The position numbers and the translations under genes are program-made. Shown piece by piece: positions 36,664 to 52,052 of a DNA stretch of 64,000 nucleotides. Numbering within the stretch: the stretch's first letter is position 1; each line of letters begins with the position of its first letter. Where the stretch lies: assembly GCA_017463485.1 (NCBI GenBank), contig JAFTPD010000002.1, forward strand, positions 321,870-385,869. The letters run 5' to 3'. Below the pieces are notes generated by a model that was not told the origin of the DNA, did no database searches, and saw only the letters and a program-made list of their open reading frames with translations. The DNA comes from Clostridia bacterium. Lineage in GTDB: Bacteria; Bacillota; Clostridia; Oscillospirales; CAG-272.

Positions 36664-37539
36664 TCAAGAGCGAATTTTATGCGTGTTTCGATATTTTACG
36701 GGAGTCATTCCCTTTATTTTCTTAAATATCTTGCCAAAATATGAGGCGCTTGAAAAGCCTGTCGCGGCGGAAATTTCATCGACCGACAGCTCACTGCCCA
36801 AAAGCATATTTGCCGCCTGCTCCACGCGTAGAACGTTCACGTACTCATTTACTGTGCAGTTGAAATATTTTCGGAAATCCCGATACAGCACGCTCTTGGA
36901 AATATTTACCCCTGCCGAGATGCTTTGGATGGACAGCTCCTCGGTGCAATTTGCATTTATATAGTCCGTCGCCTTTTCGATATTTGAGCTGTATTTCAAC
37001 TCCAGCATATCCTCAAGCAGAATATATTTTGACAGCATTACGGCAACGTTGATGATACTCTCCGTCTTTTGCTCGTCAAAATAACGCAGCTTTTCATAAT
37101 ATTCCTTCAAATTATCGAGTGAAACTCCAAGGTCCTTGACGCGCTCGGCTATCTCCGAAAAATCCGTTTCGTTGCGCAGCTCTCCGAGTATGATATAGCC
37201 TATCAAGGAGCCGTCGTGATAAAGCGGAACGGCAATATCGGTAAGCCCCGCGTGGCAAACATGACGCACTGCTATCTGTTGCTCGGAGCATTTTTCCAAA
37301 AGGCAGTAGTCGGAGTTTTGGCAAGCGCGCATTCCCGCATCGCTCTTGTGGATCTCATGGCAGAAATCCGACTGCCTTGAGTGGTCAAGGAACATATATA
37401 TGCAGGAACAATCCGCTCTGCGGAGAGCAATATTTACACCCGTAGCGTTGTAAAAATCCTGAAATGCACGCGCTATTTTTTCGGTATTGTAATTTATGAT
37501 CAAAGCCGTCACCGCCTTCCTGCAAATATTATACACCAA
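36664..37539 (-). CDS. AraC-family transcriptional regulator with N-terminal PocR sensory domain
   Basis: The PocR-type Cys pattern is FCHEIHKSDAGMRACQNSDYC...VCHAGLTDIAVPLYHDGSLIGYIILGE. The C-terminal AraC HTH region is SISAGVNISKSVLYRDFRKYF...FSSASYFGKIFKK. Confidence 0.8.
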   Translation of the reverse strand: MVYNICRKAVTALIINYNTEKIARAFQDFYNATGVNIALRRADCSCIYMFLDHSRQSDFCHEIHKSDAGMRACQNSDYCLLEKCSEQQIAVRHVCHAGLTDIAVPLYHDGSLIGYIILGELRNETDFSEIAERVKDLGVSLDNLKEYYEKLRYFDEQKTESIINVAVMLSKYILLEDMLELKYSSNIEKATDYINANCTEELSIQSISAGVNISKSVLYRDFRKYFNCTVNEYVNVLRVEQAANMLLGSELSVDEISAATGFSSASYFGKIFKKIKGMTPVKYRNTHKIRS

Positions 37540-37666
37540 AAGCGCAATTTTGTCAATACTTTCTCAAAATGCGGAATATAGTGCGAAAAAGTGGGAAATC
37601 AACACCTTGCGTATAGGAATGAAATGTGATAAAATTAAGTTAACAAACTTCAAGGAGGACGGGTTT

Positions 37667-39568
37667 ATGTATAAGCTTTCCGTACCAATATCACTCAAGT
37701 CGATAAACGACGATTCCATGAAAATTTTTCTGCGCGATTTCAAGGCTTGCGGAGTCAAACGGGTATTCATCTGCGGTCTCGGATACATATTTGACCCGAA
37801 CGACCATTGTTACACTCATGCCCACGTGCTTCAAAGCGCTATTAACACCTTCCGTGAAAACGGCTACGAGGTTGGCGTTTGGATAAGCGCATTCGGCCAC
37901 GGAGTTGCGCTCTCTCACATGGTAGAGGAATTCGACCTCAGCAGATACACCGATATCGAGGGTATCGGCGGCGACAAGCGCTCGCACGCCTTTTGCCCGC
38001 TGGACGAGAATTTCAGACATGATTACGCAGAAGGTGTCAAGCACATCGCACGTATGCATCCCGATATCATAATGCTGGATGACGATTTCCGCCTTAATAC
38101 GCGCGGATATTATTTCGGTTGCTTCTGCAAAAAGCACGTTGCGGAGTACTACAAGCGTCTGGGAGAGGAAGTCCCCCGCTCCGAGCTTGAGCGACTGATG
38201 TTCACGGGCGGTAAAAACAAGTACCGCTCCGAGTGGATGAGGCTCTCGTCCGACACCCTGCTTGATTTCGCGAAAATGCTTCGCGCAGAGGTGGACAAAA
38301 TCTATCCCGACATCCGCCTCGGTGCATGTACCACGGGAGAAAACTGGGACTTTGCGGCAAACGCTATTGAGGTGGCAAAAGCCTTTGCAGGCAATAGTAC
38401 CTTGCCCTTTACCCGAACTGCGGGCGCACCTTATTGGAGTCCTATGGTATCCGACGCCATTGAGGACACCAGAATGCAGGTTGAGTGGTGTAGCGGCACG
38501 GGTGTCGAGGTATTTGCTGAAGGCGACACCTATCCCCGTCCCCGATATATTGTCCCCGGACGACGCCTTGAGGCGTTTGATCTTGCTCTTATCGCTGACG
38601 GAACTGCCGACGGCGACTTGAAGTATATGTACGAGTACATAAACAAGCCCGAAAACGAGCGCGGCTACGTACAGCGCCACATCAAAAATGAAAAGCTCCG
38701 CGAGGAGGTAAGTGCGCTGTTTGACGGAAAAAGCGCGGTCGGCGTGCGCTCGCTGAACATAATGCGCCGCATTGAAAATATGATCATGCCCGACACCATA
38801 GAAATAGTTCAGCCCGCAACCAAGCTTGCACAGTACGTACGGAGCGCAAGCCGCCTGCTCCTGTCCCGCAACGGTATTCCCACGAGCTACACAAGCGGCG
38901 GATATTACCCCATATTCCTATACGGCGAGAACGCAAGATACGTTACCGCTGATGACCTTAAAAACGGCGCGATACTCGATATTCCCGCCGCCAAAGCACT
39001 CGCGGATATGGGAATTGACACGGGACTTATTTCAGAGGAAGCAGCTAACTTTACGGGCGAGCGTTTCCCCGATGCCGACGACTCGGTAATGGGCTTGGGG
39101 GGTATTGCTCTCAAGCGTATCGCTTGCTCGGACAAGGCAAAGGTACTCAGCACCTTTGTTCCCGACGGCACGCCATCTGCGTACACTTATGAGAACAAAA
39201 ACGGTCAGCGCTTCCTCGTTATCGCTCACGACGGATATCGCTCATGTCTCAGCGGCTCGGCGAATTTCTACAACAGCTACTACCGTCAGGAGCAGCTCAT
39301 ATTAGCTATTGAATGGCTGGGCGGTAAAAAGCTCCCTGCAGTATGCCCGAAGGCTCCCTATCTCTATCTTCTAACCTCAGTTGGCGGCGGCGCTATGTCT
39401 GTGGCTCTCGTCAACAGCTATGAGGACGACGTGATCGACCCCGTGGTACAGCTTGACCGCGAATACAGCGAGATCAAGTTCGTAGGCTGCGACGGACGGC
39501 TCGAGGGCGACAAAGTCTACCTTTCCGATATATCACCCTACGGCTTTGCGGCGTTTGAGGTAAAGTGA
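37667..39568 (+). CDS. Hypothetical 633-aa cytoplasmic protein, possibly a TIM-barrel glycosyl-hydrolase-like enzyme
   Basis: The ATG at 37667 lies 8 nt after an AAGGAGGA. The ORF-track start at 37496 overlaps the araC gene. The segment AFCPLDENFRHDYAEGVKHIARMHPDIIMLDDDFR resembles GHL-type barrels. The family is not identified. Confidence 0.45.
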   Translation: MYKLSVPISLKSINDDSMKIFLRDFKACGVKRVFICGLGYIFDPNDHCYTHAHVLQSAINTFRENGYEVGVWISAFGHGVALSHMVEEFDLSRYTDIEGIGGDKRSHAFCPLDENFRHDYAEGVKHIARMHPDIIMLDDDFRLNTRGYYFGCFCKKHVAEYYKRLGEEVPRSELERLMFTGGKNKYRSEWMRLSSDTLLDFAKMLRAEVDKIYPDIRLGACTTGENWDFAANAIEVAKAFAGNSTLPFTRTAGAPYWSPMVSDAIEDTRMQVEWCSGTGVEVFAEGDTYPRPRYIVPGRRLEAFDLALIADGTADGDLKYMYEYINKPENERGYVQRHIKNEKLREEVSALFDGKSAVGVRSLNIMRRIENMIMPDTIEIVQPATKLAQYVRSASRLLLSRNGIPTSYTSGGYYPIFLYGENARYVTADDLKNGAILDIPAAKALADMGIDTGLISEEAANFTGERFPDADDSVMGLGGIALKRIACSDKAKVLSTFVPDGTPSAYTYENKNGQRFLVIAHDGYRSCLSGSANFYNSYYRQEQLILAIEWLGGKKLPAVCPKAPYLYLLTSVGGGAMSVALVNSYEDDVIDPVVQLDREYSEIKFVGCDGRLEGDKVYLSDISPYGFAAFEVK

Positions 39569-39593: not shown

Positions 39594-40448
39594 ATGAATG
39601 CATTTCTTCTTATTTCAACCATCACGACACTGACCTTGCAAAACGTGATAATGAAGGCGTACAGCAAGCGCGGACGAGGCGGATCGTTCAGCTTTGCAAG
39701 CATTGGCGCACTTGCGGCGCTGATAGTGTTTATTATCGCGTCGGGAGGCAAGCTGAATTTCAACGCCGCTATAATTCCCCATTCCATTGCCTTTGCGGTG
39801 TCCTACTGCACAGCTCTTGTCGGCACCTTCCTCGCCGTGCGCGAGGGTCCGCTCTCCCTTACCAGCCTTATTACGTCTTATTCGCTGATCGTGCCAACTC
39901 TTTACGGACTTATATTCGGCGGCGAGGATATCAGCGTTCTGCTTATAATCGGTCTTGCGCTTTTGCTTATCTCGCTTGTATTTATCAATCTCAAAAGCAA
40001 AAATGACGAGAAAAAGATAAGCGCAAAATGGGTATTTTACGTTCTTCTCGCATTCGTGGGCAACGGTATGTGCTCTACCGTCCAAAGAATTCAGCAGGAA
40101 AATGGCTGCGCGGTTTACAAAAACGAATTTATGATAATCGCCCTGCTTATTTCCGCCGTTGCGATATTTATCTGCGCGCTTCTGACCGAAAGGAAAAGCA
40201 CCTTTGCTAACTTAAAGGATGCCGCGCCCTACGCAGCCTCCCGCGGAATTGCCAACGGACTTACCAATCTTTTCGTGCTTTTACTTACGCCGCGTATGCC
40301 CGCGTCGGTCATGTTCCCCCTGATCTCCGCAGGCGGAATAGTTGCCACGGTGCTGATCTCAATTTTCGTTTACAAGGAAAAGCTGTCCTTGCAGGAAAAG
40401 ATAGGCGTTATTATCGGTATCGCCGCGATAGTAGTTCTGAATATATAA
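39594..40448 (+). CDS. DMT-superfamily (EamA-like) 10-TM transporter
   Basis: The 284-aa product has two similar five-helix halves and follows the preceding gene by 25 nt. Confidence 0.6.
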   Translation: MNAFLLISTITTLTLQNVIMKAYSKRGRGGSFSFASIGALAALIVFIIASGGKLNFNAAIIPHSIAFAVSYCTALVGTFLAVREGPLSLTSLITSYSLIVPTLYGLIFGGEDISVLLIIGLALLLISLVFINLKSKNDEKKISAKWVFYVLLAFVGNGMCSTVQRIQQENGCAVYKNEFMIIALLISAVAIFICALLTERKSTFANLKDAAPYAASRGIANGLTNLFVLLLTPRMPASVMFPLISAGGIVATVLISIFVYKEKLSLQEKIGVIIGIAAIVVLNI

Positions 40449-40449
40449 C

Positions 40450-40492
40450 AAAAGCCACGCCGCGCTGAAATCAGCGCGGCGCGGCTTTTGCG
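40450..40492. repeat. Hairpin terminator and left copy of the island-bounding inverted repeat
   Basis: The 25-nt core CGCCGCGCTGAAATCAGCGCGGCGC lies at 40458-40482 and the tail CTTTTGCG at 40485-40492. The reverse complement recurs at 46085-46118. Confidence 0.8.
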
Positions 40493-40496
40493 TTAT

Positions 40497-40967
40497 TCAA
40501 TCAATTTTATGTTTTTCCTTTCTGTCAGCCAAGTTCTTTCCAAGTCTATACAGTAACCAAGATATAATCGGGCTTGCAAAGACAAGTACCTCTACGATTT
40601 TAAAATCTAACATAGCAACCGGTGCAAAAATGGGAATATAGATTTCAAAAAGCCTTGATGCATAAGCTATAATAACTAATGCAGAAATGGAAATCGATAT
40701 CCAAACACAGAGCTTGGCTCCGCCGCACAGCTTACGTTCCGATAAATAATTTATCTGAAACAGAAACAAAAGCTGTGACAGAAAACACGGAATGCACATA
40801 AGTAAAAAGAACCCAAAAATAAATTCATTACCGAATATATCATCCCGGACCGGAGAAAGTATTATTTCCTTGTAGCCATCTACAACAAGATATATATCTA
40901 CGCCTATAAACAAAGCGGCGGATATTAAAACAGGTAGTTTTTTTCTGATAGTATGCATTATATTCAT
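40497..40967 (-). CDS. Hypothetical 156-aa polytopic membrane protein (4-5 TM), low-GC island gene 3
   Basis: The ORF is AT-rich and follows a GGGGGA RBS. Hydrophobic segments include LPVLISAALFIGVDIYLVV, FIFGFFLLMCIPCFLSQLLFLF and VWISISISALVIIAYA. Confidence 0.6.
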   Translation of the reverse strand: MNIMHTIRKKLPVLISAALFIGVDIYLVVDGYKEIILSPVRDDIFGNEFIFGFFLLMCIPCFLSQLLFLFQINYLSERKLCGGAKLCVWISISISALVIIAYASRLFEIYIPIFAPVAMLDFKIVEVLVFASPIISWLLYRLGKNLADRKEKHKID

Positions 40968-41011
40968 ACATAATCCCCCATAATTGCAAGTAGATTATTA
41001 CGAGCGGTACT

Positions 41012-41791
41012 TTATGGATAAGTCGGTTCGTCCAGACCGTATTCGTCGCAGATATCGTCAATCATTACAGTCAGGCCGAGAGTACAAGGAATATACCACA
41101 CATCTTCCTCCCCTATAGCATCATTTTTGATACGTATGTAGTACTTACCATCACAAACATATATGTTTGCTTCCCAATAGATCTCCTCGTATTCTTTAAA
41201 TGAAAAGCGTAGCATCAGGTACTCATGTTCATCATTCAGTATGGGAGTGGGCGACGAAACACCATCACGCAAATCCTTATACGTCAGATAATTTGCCTCC
41301 GCGTTTTCGATAGTTTTTGCTATCTCCTTGGCCAGCGGCTCAGGGATTTCCGTGAGTACTTGTTTTTCGGTTTTTTCACGATATAAGCACCAATCGTCGC
41401 CAGACGGATATCCGTCACTCAAAAACAGTTTAGCAGAAGATAAATCAAATGTCAGTTTTCCTTCAAAATCAACATGCTTTTTCACTGTAGGACCTACTGC
41501 AGGACCTATTCCGGTGCCGGTAACAACGCAAGCAACAAACTCATCTGTGGATACACCGTTAATCTTGTAATATCTCCTCCTCGGCACTCCGCACGCGCCA
41601 ATCATTTTAGATTCACACTCTTCCCAAACTATGTTATAGTCCAAAGAAATATAATTCTTTTCTTCAATATCATTTCCGGGGAATATTAGCGCAAAAAGCT
41701 GTACAAAAGGAATGGCTACTAAAATTAAAATCAATACTACCACCACAATGACTGAAATAATACAGCCATGTAGGACATCTAATTTTTTCAT
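41012..41791 (-). CDS. Hypothetical 259-aa membrane-anchored protein, low-GC island gene 2
   Basis: The N-terminus is MKK followed by a hydrophobic stretch of about 30 aa, then a soluble domain of about 220 aa. The ATG lies 6 nt after the upstream stop, and its GGAGGG RBS is inside the last codons of the upstream gene. Confidence 0.65.
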   Translation of the reverse strand: MKKLDVLHGCIISVIVVVVLILILVAIPFVQLFALIFPGNDIEEKNYISLDYNIVWEECESKMIGACGVPRRRYYKINGVSTDEFVACVVTGTGIGPAVGPTVKKHVDFEGKLTFDLSSAKLFLSDGYPSGDDWCLYREKTEKQVLTEIPEPLAKEIAKTIENAEANYLTYKDLRDGVSSPTPILNDEHEYLMLRFSFKEYEEIYWEANIYVCDGKYYIRIKNDAIGEEDVWYIPCTLGLTVMIDDICDEYGLDEPTYP

Positions 41792-41797
41792 GCTATT

Positions 41798-44700
41798 TTA
41801 TCCCTCCAGATATGAAATCCAATCATTTAATGCTCCATTCCTTATGGTATACATATGATTATATTTCCCTGTATAGACTTTGATATTATCCCCGCTTCTT
41901 CCCAATGTTGCACTCCAGCTTGGTACTAAACCATCGCCTATCGTATCTTCATAATTAATTTCTATTCCTCGCGAATACAAGTCCTGAGAAATTATCTCAA
42001 AATATCTTAGTTGAACAGTAGTTGCTACACCAGAAACACATATGTACTTGCTATTGGCACTATATGTAATATGTTTATTGTTTAACATACAACTATCATG
42101 AAAAGCTTCCGCTTCCGTCATTAATGTAGAATTAAAATGTGGCAAATAGCCAGATATCAATCTCATTGACGTTGCATAATCATCACATGGTGTTTCGGTG
42201 GTTTCCCCAACGAATGGAAGTATAGTGGATACATAATGAGTGAGATACGGCATTGAATTTGCAGACAAATAATATTCCGATGGGAACAACTCATATATAC
42301 TTGGATAATTGCTAAATAGTTTTTGTAATGGATCCGATGTTAGTGTCGAAACTGTAAGAACAGCATTTACAATATTAAGTGCATTTTCATAATCTCCACC
42401 CGCCAACGCAGATATATCTACATTAGCCCACACATTAATTACTTCAGGAGTGCCTAATAAAGGTGATGAAAGCATATAAACCTCTTCAACTTTATTTCGT
42501 TGTTCCTCACCTATTGCCATATAACCAGAAGAAACCAATCCTCCCATGCTGTGGGAAATGAGAATCACCTTGTCGTATCCACACTCATCAATAAACGCAT
42601 CCAATTTTTCAGCAGAGACAGTATTAGATAGACGCCAATCGTAAGAGAAAAACTCAATAGCATATTTTGATGTAATATCGGGATCGGAATACAATTCATT
42701 TATCAACTCATAATAAGAGTTCAACAAACCTGCATGCGGGGTGTAATATCGGCTATCATATGATGAAGGCAAGGTGTATATGGGGTTACTATGATCTGTA
42801 TCGTTATCAGCATATGTGGGTTGCACATAAACATATTTTTTTGTATAAACATCATATTTGGATAAACCATTATCATTGCAAGATAGTGTATCGTAAAACA
42901 TATTTGCAAATGTAACTGTTGGAATACCTGTCACAGGCAAACTCAAAACATATGCAGCGATCAAATTTGAAATATCATCACTGTCTAACGACTGAGATAT
43001 CATGGAAAGCGTATTAACCATATCTTGATTAATAATAGGGGCATGTTCTTTAAAATAGGGATTATTTTCTCCAACAAATAATTCACTTGCGAAAATCCCT
43101 GGTACAATAATTATAGCTTGTTTATTTACCTTAATGTTGAACGTCCTTGTCAATCCCGTAGTCTTATGCGTAGCCAAAACGGCTGCAGTGCCCGGGGCTA
43201 CTCCCGTGAATCTATGAGTACTTGCATCGTATGTTACGTACTGGCTACCCGAAGTTATAGTATAGTCAAAATCGCTATAGGCTATCCAAAAGCCATTCAG
43301 AGGGGCGTTAATTGAGGCGGTAACCGTATCGTCGATATCTATTGCAAGATCATAAAAGCCGAGGGTTGAACTGGGCTCACAATAAATATCTTCTAAAACA
43401 ATACGCCAAGCTTGTTTTGAGTAGCCATCCGTATCTACGGCATACAATGCCTTGGTGGAGATAGACGATGGGTTGGTTGCCTGATCGGAGGCATATAAAT
43501 ATTTACCGTTGGATTTGTTTTGTATCAGAACTCCCCCGCCTGACACAGCAGTACTTATTGCCCATTTATATATGTCGGGTATAGTTTCCGAGGAATCATT
43601 ATATACTCTTACACCGCTTGAACTTTCGGTACTTGCAGAAAGATAGTATCCCGGAACGTCCGCACGTTGAATCGTACAATATCCATCGCCCAAATTAACT
43701 ATTTTCCACTTTACAGTATCGTCACCTATAGTTGATAACAACCCTCTTTGGCAATTTGCATAGGAATTTGACCAATGGAGATACTTTCCGATAGATCTAT
43801 TGGTTAGATAATAACAGCCTGTTTCGATAGCCGACCGATACTCGGACATATATACTTCTTCATCATTATCGTCAAAAATGTACCACATTTGATAGTAATT
43901 AGACGTATCAAGTGTTTGAACGAATATGTTGCCGGGAGAATCGGCGGTAGTTCCTGTGTTCGTACCGTTAGACGATTCATTTGCGGTCAATGCCAGCGCC
44001 ATATTTGAACGAGGAACGACCCTAAACACATACCTGTTTACCGGAACTACAAACCATTCTTGGGATATCGGATCGGTGGCTGAATATATTTGAACGTTCC
44101 TACCGCTGTATATTTCCCCACCTGATCGTTGTATACTAAGAACTTTGTCGGTTCCGGATGACGAGCTCATGGAACGGAAAAGATATGCGCCCGTTGACGC
44201 AACGTATTCCAGCTTAAACTTTTGTTCGGTGGTTGCAATTTCACTACTGTTTTCGACTTGATATACGTTTGAGTTATTAGCCGGTTCTGCACCGTTAACA
44301 GTCATATATGAACGGCTACCGCCATTTTGGAAAGAATATACCCCTCCATCCAACATCCCTGCGGGAAGTGTGTATCCGTATCTTACTTTTAGTGCAGGGC
44401 GCAGCTCCGGAGTCGTACATTCAGAACTGTAAAACGGTCGTATGAACGTATCGTCATCATCATCTTCCAGTCCTATAATAAAATCGCCCTCATAGCTATC
44501 ATTGTACCTTATTTCGTATTCCTCATCAGAATACATGCTATATATATGTGGTGTGAAATCAAATGTCACTTGTGTGACATTTGAAGCTACGGTACAATAT
44601 GTTACAAACTTATATCCATTAGTTGCCATTTGATAATCATAGCTTTCGAAATCAGAATATCCAACAAAATATCCTGCTTTCATACCGATATCCTTCGAAG

Positions 44701-45937
44701 GTCCGGATTGCAGATTTAATACCAGTTCTGCGCCGATTATAGGCATTGATTGATCTATTACGGGCAATTTTTTAATTCGTATAACTGCTTTTCGACGATC
44801 GCCATTATTCTTGTGGGTAAAATACATATACTGCGAAGCAGAATGATCTGTTGTGGAGTTTTCTTGCACATAGGTATCTTCAATATTTGCAACATAATCT
44901 CCCGTAGTAATAGACGGGTCGAGTAATATTGGAAAGACACGTTCAGACGAACCAAACCATTCAGAATCTGGAGTATATATGATTGTGCAAATATCGCCGT
45001 CTTTTTTTGCCGTTACACTAACGTCGTAGCAGATCTCAAATTCCGCATCCATCATATACGGTATACCAATGCGAAATTGCATAACTCCGTCGCCATCTAC
45101 AAGGTCGACGCTTCCGTTTTCATTTACAACAGGCGAAAGCGTACCGATATTCATATTCATGGATACCGATTGAATATCGCTTCTTTCGGAAATGATAATG
45201 TCTTCTTCAATCTTGTTGTGATATACGGTATACTTCAAAGAAACGTTTTGCTCATTAGTAAAAGCATTGTTATAGTGAATTTGCGATGAAACGTTAGGCA
45301 AATAATACGAATCATCATCAGTCACCAAACGGTCAGAGGGGGTGCTATACTCTATTTTCGTGCTGTTTATCGGCTGAGCCTTGACATCAGCCGACGGAGA
45401 TACTGTCAGATTTGCGGTGCCACCGTTAATTTGTTCTATTTGCGCATAGGAGGCTACTGCTGTTTCGATATTAGCATTTTTTGACGTTTGAATTCCCCAT
45501 GATAAAGTATATCCGTTACGCTCTATCCGTGCAATATTTGTTGAAGAAGCACTTTCGGAAAAAGAAACTTCAAAATCAGAATTCCCGCTTTTATACGTTT
45601 TTGTCGCTGAATCGTAAGTCAGCGATTGGTCGACGTCTTGCCAAGAATTGTTCGCGTCGAGATAGTGAACCGCCTCGGGATACGTCACCGAAACATACGT
45701 GCCGTCCGAGCAAAGATAATGCTTCTCAAACTGTCCGCGCTTGGAAACGTCTTCTTCAACAATGAAAACGTCTTGTTTGACTGAATCGCCGCCGTTTGAA
45801 ACTACTTGTTCCGGCAGTTCCGACGTGTCGGCGTTTTCATTGTCTAAGACAATAGCCTGTGCAGGCAACGTGACGAATATCATCACCAAAGACATCAACA
45901 GGGCGATAATTTTCACTTTGAAATTAACTTTTTTCAT
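41798..45937 (-). CDS. 1,379-aa secreted multidomain protein: signal peptide, beta-sandwich region, 2 x ricin-type beta-trefoil, Ig-like module, C-terminal LCAT-type alpha/beta-hydrolase (lipase/acyltransferase)
   Basis: The ATG at 45937 follows an AAAGGAG, and the signal sequence is MKKVNFKVKIIALLMSLVMIFVTLPAQA. Six QxW-type subrepeats are present (QKF, QEW, QMW, VKW, YKW, QAW). The YDWR motif lies at 42632-42643 and ISHSMGG at about 42539-42556. Confidence 0.8.
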   Translation of the reverse strand: MKKVNFKVKIIALLMSLVMIFVTLPAQAIVLDNENADTSELPEQVVSNGGDSVKQDVFIVEEDVSKRGQFEKHYLCSDGTYVSVTYPEAVHYLDANNSWQDVDQSLTYDSATKTYKSGNSDFEVSFSESASSTNIARIERNGYTLSWGIQTSKNANIETAVASYAQIEQINGGTANLTVSPSADVKAQPINSTKIEYSTPSDRLVTDDDSYYLPNVSSQIHYNNAFTNEQNVSLKYTVYHNKIEEDIIISERSDIQSVSMNMNIGTLSPVVNENGSVDLVDGDGVMQFRIGIPYMMDAEFEICYDVSVTAKKDGDICTIIYTPDSEWFGSSERVFPILLDPSITTGDYVANIEDTYVQENSTTDHSASQYMYFTHKNNGDRRKAVIRIKKLPVIDQSMPIIGAELVLNLQSGPSKDIGMKAGYFVGYSDFESYDYQMATNGYKFVTYCTVASNVTQVTFDFTPHIYSMYSDEEYEIRYNDSYEGDFIIGLEDDDDDTFIRPFYSSECTTPELRPALKVRYGYTLPAGMLDGGVYSFQNGGSRSYMTVNGAEPANNSNVYQVENSSEIATTEQKFKLEYVASTGAYLFRSMSSSSGTDKVLSIQRSGGEIYSGRNVQIYSATDPISQEWFVVPVNRYVFRVVPRSNMALALTANESSNGTNTGTTADSPGNIFVQTLDTSNYYQMWYIFDDNDEEVYMSEYRSAIETGCYYLTNRSIGKYLHWSNSYANCQRGLLSTIGDDTVKWKIVNLGDGYCTIQRADVPGYYLSASTESSSGVRVYNDSSETIPDIYKWAISTAVSGGGVLIQNKSNGKYLYASDQATNPSSISTKALYAVDTDGYSKQAWRIVLEDIYCEPSSTLGFYDLAIDIDDTVTASINAPLNGFWIAYSDFDYTITSGSQYVTYDASTHRFTGVAPGTAAVLATHKTTGLTRTFNIKVNKQAIIIVPGIFASELFVGENNPYFKEHAPIINQDMVNTLSMISQSLDSDDISNLIAAYVLSLPVTGIPTVTFANMFYDTLSCNDNGLSKYDVYTKKYVYVQPTYADNDTDHSNPIYTLPSSYDSRYYTPHAGLLNSYYELINELYSDPDITSKYAIEFFSYDWRLSNTVSAEKLDAFIDECGYDKVILISHSMGGLVSSGYMAIGEEQRNKVEEVYMLSSPLLGTPEVINVWANVDISALAGGDYENALNIVNAVLTVSTLTSDPLQKLFSNYPSIYELFPSEYYLSANSMPYLTHYVSTILPFVGETTETPCDDYATSMRLISGYLPHFNSTLMTEAEAFHDSCMLNNKHITYSANSKYICVSGVATTVQLRYFEIISQDLYSRGIEINYEDTIGDGLVPSWSATLGRSGDNIKVYTGKYNHMYTIRNGALNDWISYLEG

Positions 45938-46026
45938 TTCGTACTCCTTTCTGTTTTTTGTCAATATTCTCCACATTACGGCAATACGTTGCAATAATCT
46001 TGCCTCGCATATCGTAGTGCAACCTG

Positions 46027-46055
46027 ATTATACCATAAATTACCACAAAAGTCAA
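46027..46055 (-). promoter_or_regulatory. Consensus sigma-A-type promoter of the island operon
   Basis: The minus strand reads TTGACT, 17 nt, TATAAT, with a TGg extended -10, about 85 nt upstream of the ATG at 45937. Confidence 0.7.
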
Positions 46056-46084: not shown

Positions 46085-46125
46085 CGCAAAAGTGCGCCGC
46101 GCTGATTTCAGCGCGGCGCACCATT
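46085..46125. repeat. Hairpin terminator after cvpA and right (inverted) copy of the island-bounding repeat
   Basis: The tail CGCAAAAG lies at 46085-46092 and GCGCCGCGCTGATTTCAGCGCGGCG at 46094-46118. This is the exact reverse complement of the 40458-40482 core. The stem has 14 bp. Confidence 0.8.
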
Positions 46126-46132
46126 TATTATT

Positions 46133-46666: not shown

Positions 46667-47932
46667 TTATTCCTCGGATTTCAGCACCGTAGCATACGAG
46701 GTGGTGCAGGCAAGCACCTTGCCGTTTTTGCGGACGAGCAATTTATCCACGCCGTCGTCGGGAAGAATGAGCGGCTCCCCCTCTCCGCGCGACGAAAAGC
46801 TGCGCACATTATCCTCGGTCAGAACATACACGTCCCTGCCCGACAGGCAAATTTGAATTGGCTTTGCTCCCTCCTCCACCTGTACGCGATATGCCTCGTT
46901 ACCGTATTTATCAACTACTGCAAGGATATAAGCATCTGCTGAGTCGTTGGATCTCAGCAAGACTGCGACGTTATCCTTCGTCACGGTATACAGTGCGGGG
47001 GCGCCGTCTGAAAATGCTATTTCCTCATTCGCCGTACCGTCGAAGCGGTAAAATCTCAAGCCGTCGCCACAAACGGCGGTAATTCTGGAATTGTCCGAGA
47101 ATGCGAGGTCGTAGACCACGGTATTGCCGAGTGACACGTCGGCTTCGCTCTCCGAAGCTCCCACTCGCAAGGTGACAAGCCTTGTCGCGCCTCCCTGTGC
47201 GGTGTATTCAAGCACCGACATTGCAAGCCGCGTGCCTCCGTCGTTGAAGGCTACGTCGGTAACGTATCCGTCGGTACGGTACGTAGTTATTTTTTGCATA
47301 TCGGCGTCGTATATATTCACCTCGGACTTATATTCGCGGCTTCTGGTGACCACCGCAAAGCTTCCACTATCCGACATTTCGGCAAGATAGACGGGATATT
47401 CGGTAGACTCGCCGTAAATACGCACGAAGGAATTATACACGGCGAAGGACTTTTCCCCTCTGCCCCAGACCACGAAATATTTATCTCCACTGCTTACACA
47501 CGGATTAGTATATGCCACGTTATCCGAAAGGGTCTGCTTACCCGACGCGCTGATAACGGTTACCTCGTCTTCGCCCGCCACGATAAGTCCCTCGCGGTAG
47601 AGCGCGTAGCTTTGGGAAGCACCCGAGGTAGGATAGCTGAGATAATTTGCCGCGTCGGATGCATCGGTGGCGGCGGCGTTGATATCCTTTACGAGATAAT
47701 AAAGATTGCTGTACGTAATCAGCTTAGAGCCGAAAATTATGGTGGTCAGCAAAAAGAGGAATAAAACTATATATATTATCATTCTCGCCGCTGAGAAGCG
47801 CGCGGCAAGCTCGGAATAATACGGAATGGAGGGCGAGGAAAAGTCGATAGGCTCGCCGTCGGTGCTTTTACTTTTATATATTTTATTTTTCACTGTGTAG
47901 AACAGCTTTTGCAATCTTTGACCAAGCTTCAA
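46667..47932 (-). CDS. Membrane-anchored protein with beta-strand-rich repetitive ectodomain (possibly DUF5711-like)
   Basis: There is one TM helix (IIYIVLFLFLLTTIIFG). A TTG start at 47932 lies 8 nt after an AAGGAGG. The family call is tentative. Confidence 0.45.
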   Translation of the reverse strand: MKLGQRLQKLFYTVKNKIYKSKSTDGEPIDFSSPSIPYYSELAARFSAARMIIYIVLFLFLLTTIIFGSKLITYSNLYYLVKDINAAATDASDAANYLSYPTSGASQSYALYREGLIVAGEDEVTVISASGKQTLSDNVAYTNPCVSSGDKYFVVWGRGEKSFAVYNSFVRIYGESTEYPVYLAEMSDSGSFAVVTRSREYKSEVNIYDADMQKITTYRTDGYVTDVAFNDGGTRLAMSVLEYTAQGGATRLVTLRVGASESEADVSLGNTVVYDLAFSDNSRITAVCGDGLRFYRFDGTANEEIAFSDGAPALYTVTKDNVAVLLRSNDSADAYILAVVDKYGNEAYRVQVEEGAKPIQICLSGRDVYVLTEDNVRSFSSRGEGEPLILPDDGVDKLLVRKNGKVLACTTSYATVLKSEE

Positions 47933-47956
47933 GAAAAGCACCTCCTTACCTTGAAA

Positions 47957-48830: not shown

Positions 48831-52052
<3,222 letters not shown>

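Follow-up and report, generated by a model that had tools for sequence, protein, structure and literature searches.

Little is understood of how the Gram-positive anaerobes that dominate the gut antagonise one another, and most of the protein weapons known in bacteria depend on a secretion system of type VI (T6SS), in Bacteroidota and Proteobacteria, or on one of type VII (T7SS) and LXG proteins, in Bacilli. The 64,000-nucleotide stretch of Clostridia contig JAFTPD010000002.1 analyzed here (hereafter, the window) encodes on its reverse strand a 1379-amino acid (aa) protein with lectin domains and a C-terminal lipase-like domain, parts of which can be compared with several described systems. 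Tle4-Tli4 (TplE-TplEi) of Pseudomonas aeruginosa, whose complex is 4R1D, pairs a lipolytic T6SS toxin active against bacteria with an immunity protein located in the periplasm (PMC5611513), and TslA-TilA of Staphylococcus aureus pairs a T7SS phospholipase A toxin with an extracellular immunity lipoprotein, the toxin being polymorphic and the immunity copy number variable (PMC10730906). WapA of Streptococcus suis is a Sec-dependent polymorphic toxin with an unknown N-domain and a DNRLRE domain in the fragment assigned to wall binding (PMC12704120). Additionally, polymorphic toxins may carry RicinB, discoidin or bulb-lectin modules, and these lectins are thought to recognise glycans on the surface of target cells (Zhang et al. 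2012, PMC3482391).

The 1379-aa product of the window consists, in this order, of a predicted signal peptide, a conserved N-domain, a CBM96/DNRLRE-like module recognised through homologues, a pair of ricin-B trefoils, a Big_2-like domain and, at the C-terminus, a hydrolase of the LCAT/LPLA2 type. An earlier note on this DNA, made from its letters and a list of open reading frames (ORFs), had given the domains in the correct order, and all the motifs quoted in it were found in their places. It was silent on three features that are described below, namely the polymorphic-toxin family to which the protein belongs, the adjacent candidate immunity gene (41012-41791) and the island of low guanine-plus-cytosine (GC) content in which both genes lie. 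From comparative sequence analysis, the reading that we favour, with a probability of about 0.7, is that the protein is a polymorphic toxin, exported by Sec and bearing lectins and a phospholipase A tail, that is encoded with a cognate membrane-anchored immunity protein and represents a previously undescribed family of gut Clostridia.

A search with the whole protein returned 154 relatives, none of them informatively named and all from metagenomes or metagenome-assembled genomes (MAGs), which agreed with the statement in the earlier note that the protein was not a characterised one. About 40 of these relatives were full-length with an LCAT-like tail, and about 75 matched residues 1 to ~935 only and then continued into a different tail. 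The BLAST end-points concentrated at query aa 935-950, directly after the Ig-like domain, and clustering of the tails yielded at least 16 unrelated classes among 113 proteins. Annotated tails included DUF3289, DUF4329, DUF6345, a second alpha/beta-hydrolase type (PGAP1/DUF7379/Palm_thioest) and PF27189. In reference genomes, Peptidase_M23 was found after the N-domain/CBM96 head alone, without the ricin domains, and Peptidase_C70 and DUF7689 tails were found as well. Scaffold identity to the query was 56-58% in non-LCAT-tailed proteins versus only 30-46% in some LCAT-tailed ones; scaffold identity is thus uncoupled from tail class, which argues for the exchange of tails by recombination. Amongst the tails, DUF3289 has been confirmed by experiment as an antibacterial effector domain of T6SS, followed by an immunity gene; it was proposed to act in the periplasm and predicted to be colicin M-like (PMC12135965).

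Orphan, 5'-truncated modules, in each of which a ricin/Big_2 end is joined to a new tail and followed by a small ORF of its own, were located downstream of full-length toxin genes in loci L008 (10644-14513) and L023 (11296-13200). Locus L030 (5306-7437) held a split, apparently disrupted toxin gene and no intact full-length copy. No orphan modules or immunity-only loci were found within the window. At L008, one downstream protein gave a faint Pfam match to TipC, the TelC immunity family, and several more small ORFs followed.

The gene that starts 6 nucleotides (nt) 3' of the toxin stop codon (41012..41791, (-)) encodes a candidate immunity protein of 259 aa with an N-terminal membrane anchor. 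Every locus examined had a small ORF after the toxin gene, at a spacing of -53 to +59 nt, and 23 of the 26 first downstream proteins were lipoproteins, signal-anchored or polytopic. That these proteins are mostly extracytoplasmic fits with toxins acting outside the cytoplasm. The 259-aa protein is homologous to the first downstream protein of other LCAT-type loci (for L004, 34% identity, E=1e-22), and BLAST clustering placed this family, designated D0, as the first downstream gene in six of the seven loci with an LCAT tail versus none of the 19 loci with other tails. In the seventh LCAT-type locus (L003), the downstream protein was a weaker D0 relative. The class 4 tail was paired with another family, D5, in both of its loci.

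Most members of D0 are lipoproteins, and the family has diverged further than its partner, with identities of 18-33% versus 35-58% for the toxin domain. In locus L036 (7911-9073), only 139 codons of the LCAT-type toxin gene are left (aa 1-106 and the final ~40 aa, P0059-like) and the adjacent D0 lipoprotein gene is intact; in locus L005, an orphan D0 gene is present in a DUF3289-type locus. Because D0 occurs in these two settings and the non-lipase tails have downstream genes of their own, D0 is better read as an immunity family than as a lipase foldase, and the 259-aa protein is a candidate for the cognate immunity protein of the hydrolase tail. A match of D0 to Imm59 (E=0.56) was regarded as noise and a faint match of the 259-aa ORF to conj_TIGR03750 was dismissed as chance. 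A word-indexed homologue search for D0 gave nine hits, all without annotation.

Altogether, the family displays three of the features by which polymorphic toxins are recognised. It has a conserved N-terminal scaffold with unrelated and interchangeable C-terminal domains (further tails being carried on the N-domain alone), a gene directly downstream that changes along with the toxin domain (D0 with LCAT, D5 with class 4) and has a predicted immunity role, and displaced parts of the cassette in the form of the orphan modules of L008 and L023, the orphan D0 gene of L005 and the toxin-deleted locus L036.

The C-terminal alpha/beta-hydrolase domain (aa 937-1379; 41801..43129, (-)) was assigned through Pfam, a structure model, Foldseek and alignment of the catalytic triad. 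The Pfam LCAT profile (PF02450) matched the query with 34.4 bits against a cut-off of 21, over profile positions 90-173 only, and PGAP1 matched with 26.5 bits against a cut-off of 24.3. The motifs FSYDWRLS, VILISHSMGG, GDGLVP and KYNHMY (with the late His) start at aa 1097, 1124, 1334 and 1358, respectively. The catalytic residues are the nucleophile Ser1130 (42548-42550), Asp1335 (41933-41935) and His1361 (41855-41857), corresponding to Ser194, Asp399 and His425 of the domain; together with YDWR (aa 1099-1102), they were invariant in an alignment of 55 relatives with identities down to ~23%. The AlphaFold2 model of the domain built from this alignment had a predicted local distance difference test score (pLDDT) of 90.7 and a predicted template modelling score of 0.92, with helical insertions of lower confidence at domain residues 30-80 and 240-270.

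When the model was compared with the PDB by Foldseek, LPLA2 and LCAT made up the top 11 matches (E 1.5e-13 to 1.4e-8, template modelling (TM) scores of 0.5-0.63, or 0.59-0.63 when normalised by the target) and generic bacterial lipases followed at E=2e-5 or weaker; the best structural match had a TM score of 0.54 normalised by the query and 0.62 by the target. A profile search of PDB sequences aligned YDWR with YDWR, AHSMGG with AHSMG, GDxLVP with GDGTV and the late His with that of LPLA2. The triad aligned to S165/D327/H359 of LPLA2 and to Tle4, and the S165A structure 4x92 shows AHAMG at the aligned serine. The family profile also matched the T6SS lipase toxin Tle4/TplE (4r1d_A, E=9e-7), with PGIxGxxL, Y(D/N)W and HSMGGLVA aligned. 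Membership of the C-terminal domain in the LCAT/LPLA2 family, which the earlier note had proposed from the motif order, is thus supported by profiles above cut-off, by fold and by catalytic residues that align one by one. In total, the hydrolase domain has ~1700 representative relatives.

Human LPLA2 (PLA2G15) and LCAT were the best whole-domain structural matches and share the YDWR, HSMG, GDG-V and His motifs with the window domain, which differs from them in its 14-15% identity, in its extra helical insertions and in its fusion to a 935-aa delivery scaffold. The likeness to Tle4/TplE and Tli4 lies in the homologous catalytic domains and, by analogy, in the predicted action of the window pair, since Tle4 is an antibacterial lipolytic toxin that acts on the extracytoplasmic side and is neutralised by an extracytoplasmic partner encoded alongside (PMC5611513). 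However, Tle4, a PGAP1-like phospholipase effector, is injected by T6SS, whereas the window protein has a predicted Sec signal peptide and a lectin scaffold and comes from a Clostridia lineage; its domain is also nearer to LPLA2/LCAT by fold, and D0 has no detectable sequence relation to any solved chain, Tli4 included. TslA-TilA, which is likened here by description only, offers a Gram-positive parallel in an interbacterial phospholipase A that acts outside the cytoplasm and is neutralised by a lipoprotein, as is predicted for the window pair. TslA is exported via T7SS with a reverse LXG-like helical domain and Lap partners, whereas the window protein would be exported via Sec and has no helical targeting domain, and TilA is a DUF576 protein, whereas no family in Pfam includes D0.

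The lectin region comprises ricin-B beta-trefoil 1 (aa ~531-688; 43874..44347, (-)), with the motifs QKF, QEW and QMW at aa 572, 626 and 683, and ricin-B beta-trefoil 2 (aa ~705-848; 43394..43825, (-)), with VKW, YKW and QAW at aa 742, 790 and 842. These six QxW-like motifs (44224-43403), three per trefoil, are spaced 48-59 residues apart. RicinB_lectin_2 matched four stretches of the query with 64.5 bits against a cut-off of 25.6, trefoil 1 had a PDB sequence match to the 8bad lectin, and ThreeFoil (3pg0) aligned with aa 706-847 of trefoil 2. In Foldseek, the region matched the tandem trefoils of botulinum HA33, mosquitocidal MTX and ebulin B. Four Trp residues were invariant, W628 and W685 in trefoil 1 and W792 and W844 in trefoil 2. 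By profile and modelled fold, these are two ricin-B (R-type) beta-trefoil domains, as the earlier note had read from the six motifs, and sugar binding is predicted for them. Streptomyces umbrella toxin particles, in which the lectins reportedly reside on separate UmbA proteins, are similar in combining a polymorphic C-terminal toxin with lectin modules; they differ from the window protein, whose lectins lie within a single Sec-exported polypeptide.

The trefoils are followed by a Big_2-like Ig domain (aa ~860-935; 43133..43360, (-)), which contains YVTYDASTHRF at aa 900 and ends with ATHKTTGLTRTFNIKVNKQ at the recombination junction. The Ig-like stretch suggested previously is supported by a beta-sandwich in the model and by Big_2 matches of E=2e-4 to 5e-4 to the same region of close homologues, which are still below the Pfam cut-off, as is the match of the query itself (E=0.28).

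At the N-terminal end of the scaffold, a conserved beta-rich N-domain (aa 55-345; 44903..45775, (-)) has 45 invariant columns and the motifs FEKHYLCSDG, HNKIEEDI and PILLDPSITT. Searches of Pfam and the PDB with the N-domain gave nothing significant, only a sub-threshold match to DUF7572, and the Foldseek search with the scaffold was dominated by trefoil matches, with none for the N-domain. The scaffold model (residues 1-936; pLDDT 83) consists of all-beta domains after the signal helix and a linker. The next segment, GDYVANIEDTYVQ, begins at aa 346 (44902) and leads into a CBM96/DNRLRE-like beta-sandwich, the mapped part of which is aa 349-464 (44546..44893, (-)). This module was recognised via the homologue P0091, whose CBM96 match (PF24517, E=8e-9) maps onto these query residues through the alignment, and the homologues matching PF24517 in the aligned region are ~36% identical to the query. 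The DNRLRE-type domain that the earlier note had placed here is thus supported through a homologue and not by a direct match, as the query itself had no DNRLRE (NF033679) or CBM96 match at E<=1 in NCBIfam or Pfam.

A tblastn search of plasmids led to a 'DNRLRE domain-containing protein' of Priestia megaterium (WP_318619417.1), encoded on plasmid NZ_CP137807.1 (L044, 7004-13817). This 2186-aa protein contains the N-domain, CBM96, DUF6531 and RHS repeats, and a 78-aa ORF begins 17 nt downstream of its gene. With hhalign, its aa 85-306 aligned to the N-domain with 99.2% probability (E=3e-19), and CBM96 comes directly after the homologous N-domain. The resemblance to Rhs/WapA toxins (S. suis WapA-CT1 and the Priestia protein) includes a homologous N-terminal head followed by CBM96/DNRLRE (for the window protein, as seen in its homologues), together with a predicted Sec signal, a C-terminal toxin that varies and, directly 3' of it, a small gene. 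The difference is the DUF6531 domain and the cage of RHS repeats. Neither RHS_repeat nor DUF6531 had a match in the query or its family, so that the window protein is not an Rhs protein, and in the absence of an Rhs cage, encapsulation in an Rhs shell and autoproteolytic release cannot apply. As judged by homology, the window protein has a head in common with Gram-positive Rhs/WapA toxins, and its two lectin domains and Ig domain appear in place of the Rhs cage. The Priestia locus comes from a cultured organism and has, on its flanks, genes that encode cell-wall-binding repeat proteins and an IS3 transposase; this plasmid toxin may serve as a model in which the head domain common to both can be approached by experiment.

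The toxin gene lies in a single ORF (41798..45994, (-)), in which the ATG at 45937 (MKKVNF...) gives the 1379-aa product. Because a Shine-Dalgarno sequence read from the DNA, AAGGAG (45944..45949, (-)), sits 6 nt before it, this ATG is likely the true start. Approximately 90 nt upstream of the start codon, a promoter-like TTGACT-17-TATAAT with an extended TG (46027..46055, (-)) was the best in the region by consensus match only, at 11 of 12 positions. The predicted Sec-type signal peptide (aa 1-28, MKKVNFKVKIIALLMSLVMIFVTLPAQA followed by IV; 45854..45937, (-)) was judged by eye from its n-region MKKVNFKVK, its hydrophobic core and the sequence PAQA before the I at the cleavage position, and from the structure model, in which a helix at residues 5-23 is followed by a disordered linker at 23-54. 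Both the start codon and the signal peptide had been given in the earlier note and are consistent with these observations.

The GC content of the window is 0.35-0.44 from ~40450 to ~46150, versus ~0.50 outside, and this span holds exactly the toxin gene, the 259-aa gene and an ORF of 156 aa (40497..40967, (-)). By composition and gene order, the three constitute a low-GC, operon-like island. The 156-aa ORF, the third gene of the island, has four predicted transmembrane helices and lies before a terminator; its product could act as a release factor or as an immunity protein, either an additional one or an orphan. An orphan immunity gene from another tail class was considered and given up, as the 156-aa product resembled none of the downstream proteins, and a faint match to TssN was dismissed as chance. 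The three-gene unit ends at the left border in a terminator-like GC hairpin with a 20-bp stem (40448..40491, (-)), and a right border copy with 38-nt arms that are 87% complementary (46092..46131, (+)) is located downstream of the convergent CvpA gene. These GC-rich hairpins of ~35-38 nt (at 40445-40491 and 46092-46131) contain a 22-nt core, GCCGCGCTGATTTCAGCGCGGC, that is identical in both copies (none expected by chance), and each copy lies just past the stop codon of a convergent flanking gene (EamA and CvpA). The hairpins may represent a duplicated bidirectional terminator that marks the insertion site; a role as a family-wide attachment site was discarded, as they were found only in contigs of the same lineage.

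The flanking genes are ordinary and include those for an EamA transporter, CvpA, a DUF5711 protein, TruA and a GH2 beta-galactosidase (48846-52052), and homologous cassettes elsewhere were found in unrelated contexts, next to BipA, DXS or RF3. From its composition, we infer that the island was horizontally acquired. Two further ORFs, both uncharacterised, lie outside the island: one of 690 aa upstream of the EamA gene (37496-39568, (+)), with no Pfam match, and the 424-aa DUF5711 protein between CvpA and TruA (46667-47941, (-)). At two other loci with LCAT-type toxins (L001, 1-4449; L004, 1-5311), a GH25 muramidase gene and then a gene for a ~1440-aa protein lie directly upstream of the toxin genes; this protein had no Pfam match, is unlike the scaffold in sequence and may likewise be large, secreted and antibacterial or lytic.

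A scan of reference genomes with the single protein as query gave nothing, and an alignment-based scan succeeded, finding the family in MAGs of Oscillospiraceae, Ruminococcus, Eubacteriales, Lachnospiraceae and Clostridium sp. CAG:448. Outside those Clostridia MAGs, the only match was a partial one in a Selenomonadaceae genome. The named sources were human (Hadza), deer, goat and rabbit guts, and some genomes carried several copies. No T6SS genes were present in the flanks examined, the carriers being Clostridia MAGs, and no full-length relatives were found in plasmid or phage collections. Two unannotated human-faecal 'Bacteriophage sp.' sequences, MT835902.1 (6524-6955) and MT835548.1 (4519-4668), gave short weak matches to toxin aa 3-147 and to aa 1092-1141 in the nucleophile region, respectively.

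Under the favoured reading, the three genes at 40497-45937 (-) would form a horizontally acquired toxin-immunity cassette. The 1379-aa protein would be exported by Sec and its signal peptide cleaved, after which the head and the two ricin-B trefoils would bind cell-surface glycans and either hold the toxin on the wall of its producer or dock it on the wall of a neighbour. There, the hydrolase with its Ser1130-Asp1335-His1361 triad would act as a phospholipase A, possibly as a transacylase, on the cytoplasmic membrane of the target, at its outer face. The membrane-anchored, extracytoplasmic 259-aa protein encoded alongside would bind and block the lipase and protect the producer, in the manner of Tli4 for Tle4 and the lipoprotein TilA for TslA. 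Recombination at the junction of Big_2 and tail would swap the tail together with its immunity gene and create new specificities. A broader and more tentative extension, which we consider possible but rather less probable than its opposite, is a diffusible, lectin-addressed bacteriocin platform of uncultured gut Clostridia, of which this protein would be the first example. CBM96 and ricin-B modules of one Sec-exported chain would read the wall-glycan address of competitors, exchangeable C-terminal enzymes (the phospholipase, the DUF3289 domain that was proposed to be colicin M-like and other hydrolases) would act outside the membrane and need no dedicated secretion machine, Rhs cage or translocation, and lipoprotein immunity genes would circulate independently as a community-level resistance.

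Three other explanations were weighed against this. The earlier note had left the function between an interbacterial or host-directed membrane-attacking effector and a glycan-anchored, lipid-scavenging enzyme. In its fullest form, the latter is a secreted lipase or acyltransferase for nutrition or surface remodelling, with host, dietary or microbial lipids as substrates and the 259-aa protein as a foldase or chaperone like Lif or LipB. The LCAT-like domain occurs on many adhesin-type Firmicute scaffolds, the window is rich in glycan-utilisation genes such as the GH2 beta-galactosidase, CBM96 and ricin-B are typical appendages of carbohydrate-active enzymes, the Lif-type foldases of Pseudomonas and Burkholderia are membrane-anchored and encoded directly after their lipases, and lipase-foldase complexes (2es4, 9g8u) were among the weaker Foldseek matches. 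Yet tails of at least 16 unrelated classes, the antibacterial DUF3289 and non-lipase enzymes among them, are found on one scaffold and each has a downstream gene of its own, and the head of that scaffold is common to Rhs toxins. A foldase would also be useless where D0 persists beside a deleted lipase (L036) or as an orphan next to a non-lipase toxin (L005), and D0 lacks sequence similarity to Lif or any solved protein. Because of the interchangeable tails, each with its own small downstream protein, and of the LCAT-D0 pairing, the interbacterial effector is the best supported of the options and scavenging is less favoured; we consider the latter unlikely.

A toxin aimed at the host or another eukaryote appears slightly less likely still. 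In that case, the tandem ricin-B lectins would bind glycans of epithelia, protozoa or fungi in the manner of botulinum HA33, MTX or the ricin B chain, the LPLA2-like domain would damage eukaryotic membranes and the 259-aa protein would only shield the producer during export. The best matches of the lectin region (HA33, MTX, ebulin) are indeed toxin-associated lectins that bind animal glycans, the catalytic domain has its closest solved relatives in LPLA2 and LCAT of mammals, TplE as a related lipase of T6SS has been called a trans-kingdom toxin (PMC5611513) and the family is limited to gut-associated bacteria. However, pairing with polymorphic, fast-diverging self-protection genes, immunity-only loci and orphan modules points to conflict among related bacteria, the sister tails Peptidase_M23 and DUF3289 (proposed to be colicin M-like) target parts of the bacterial envelope that eukaryotes lack, and the family is carried by commensal Clostridia, still uncultured, that live in healthy humans and herbivores. 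Finally, the protein could be an ordinary multidomain surface protein, produced by generic shuffling of exoprotein domains and followed by unrelated small membrane proteins with no toxin-immunity logic, as might be expected from downstream proteins that mostly do not cluster by BLAST within a tail class and belong to no known family. We regard this as highly improbable in view of the sharp, shared breakpoint, the tight spacing of the downstream genes, the specific association of LCAT tails with D0, the internal toxin deletion of L036 that spares D0 and the homology of the head to that of an Rhs toxin.

Several observations weigh against a lectin-bearing toxin with cognate immunity. The support for it is entirely comparative, for every member of the family. 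The association of D0 with LCAT tails has a Fisher p of 3e-5, which overstates the independence of the loci as they are related, and covariation is clear for the LCAT class and class 4 only, the downstream proteins of most other tail classes having diverged too far to cluster by BLAST. D0 had no relative in Pfam or among PDB sequences and so represents no known immunity family, and the 156-aa ORF was matched by no Pfam family and by nothing at the 26 related loci. At the junction of scaffold and tail, no processing or release motif was identified. In a sample of six long relatives, the same hydrolase occurred on adhesin-like scaffolds (BspA-LRR/Big_2, Shr-HID, CARDB) and none had an LCAT-like tail on an LXG or Rhs scaffold; its presence on adhesin-type scaffolds means that the domain alone is not diagnostic of toxins. 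Additionally, no empty insertion site was found, as all contigs encoding an identical CvpA carry the island, and insertion is therefore inferred from GC content only.

In the literature searched, a scaffold of N-domain, CBM96, two ricin domains and Big_2 with a distribution in gut Clostridia was not found. The finding overturns no concept, since the existence of polymorphic toxins that have Sec signals and RicinB modules was broadly foreseen in 2012. If the favoured reading is true, uncultured Oscillospiraceae and Ruminococcus-type Clostridia would deploy large Sec-exported toxins in which a WapA-like head and lectins stand in for the Rhs cage and at least 16 envelope-directed tails are exchanged with matching immunity genes. 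The family would then offer toxin-immunity pairs that can be tested, the LCAT-like lipase and D0 being the first of them, several candidate domains for toxins and for immunity that are as yet uncharacterised, and a bacterial branch of the LCAT/LPLA2 fold for comparison. For studies of interbacterial antagonism and of the gut microbiome, it would also provide lectin modules that may define targeting at the level of strains.

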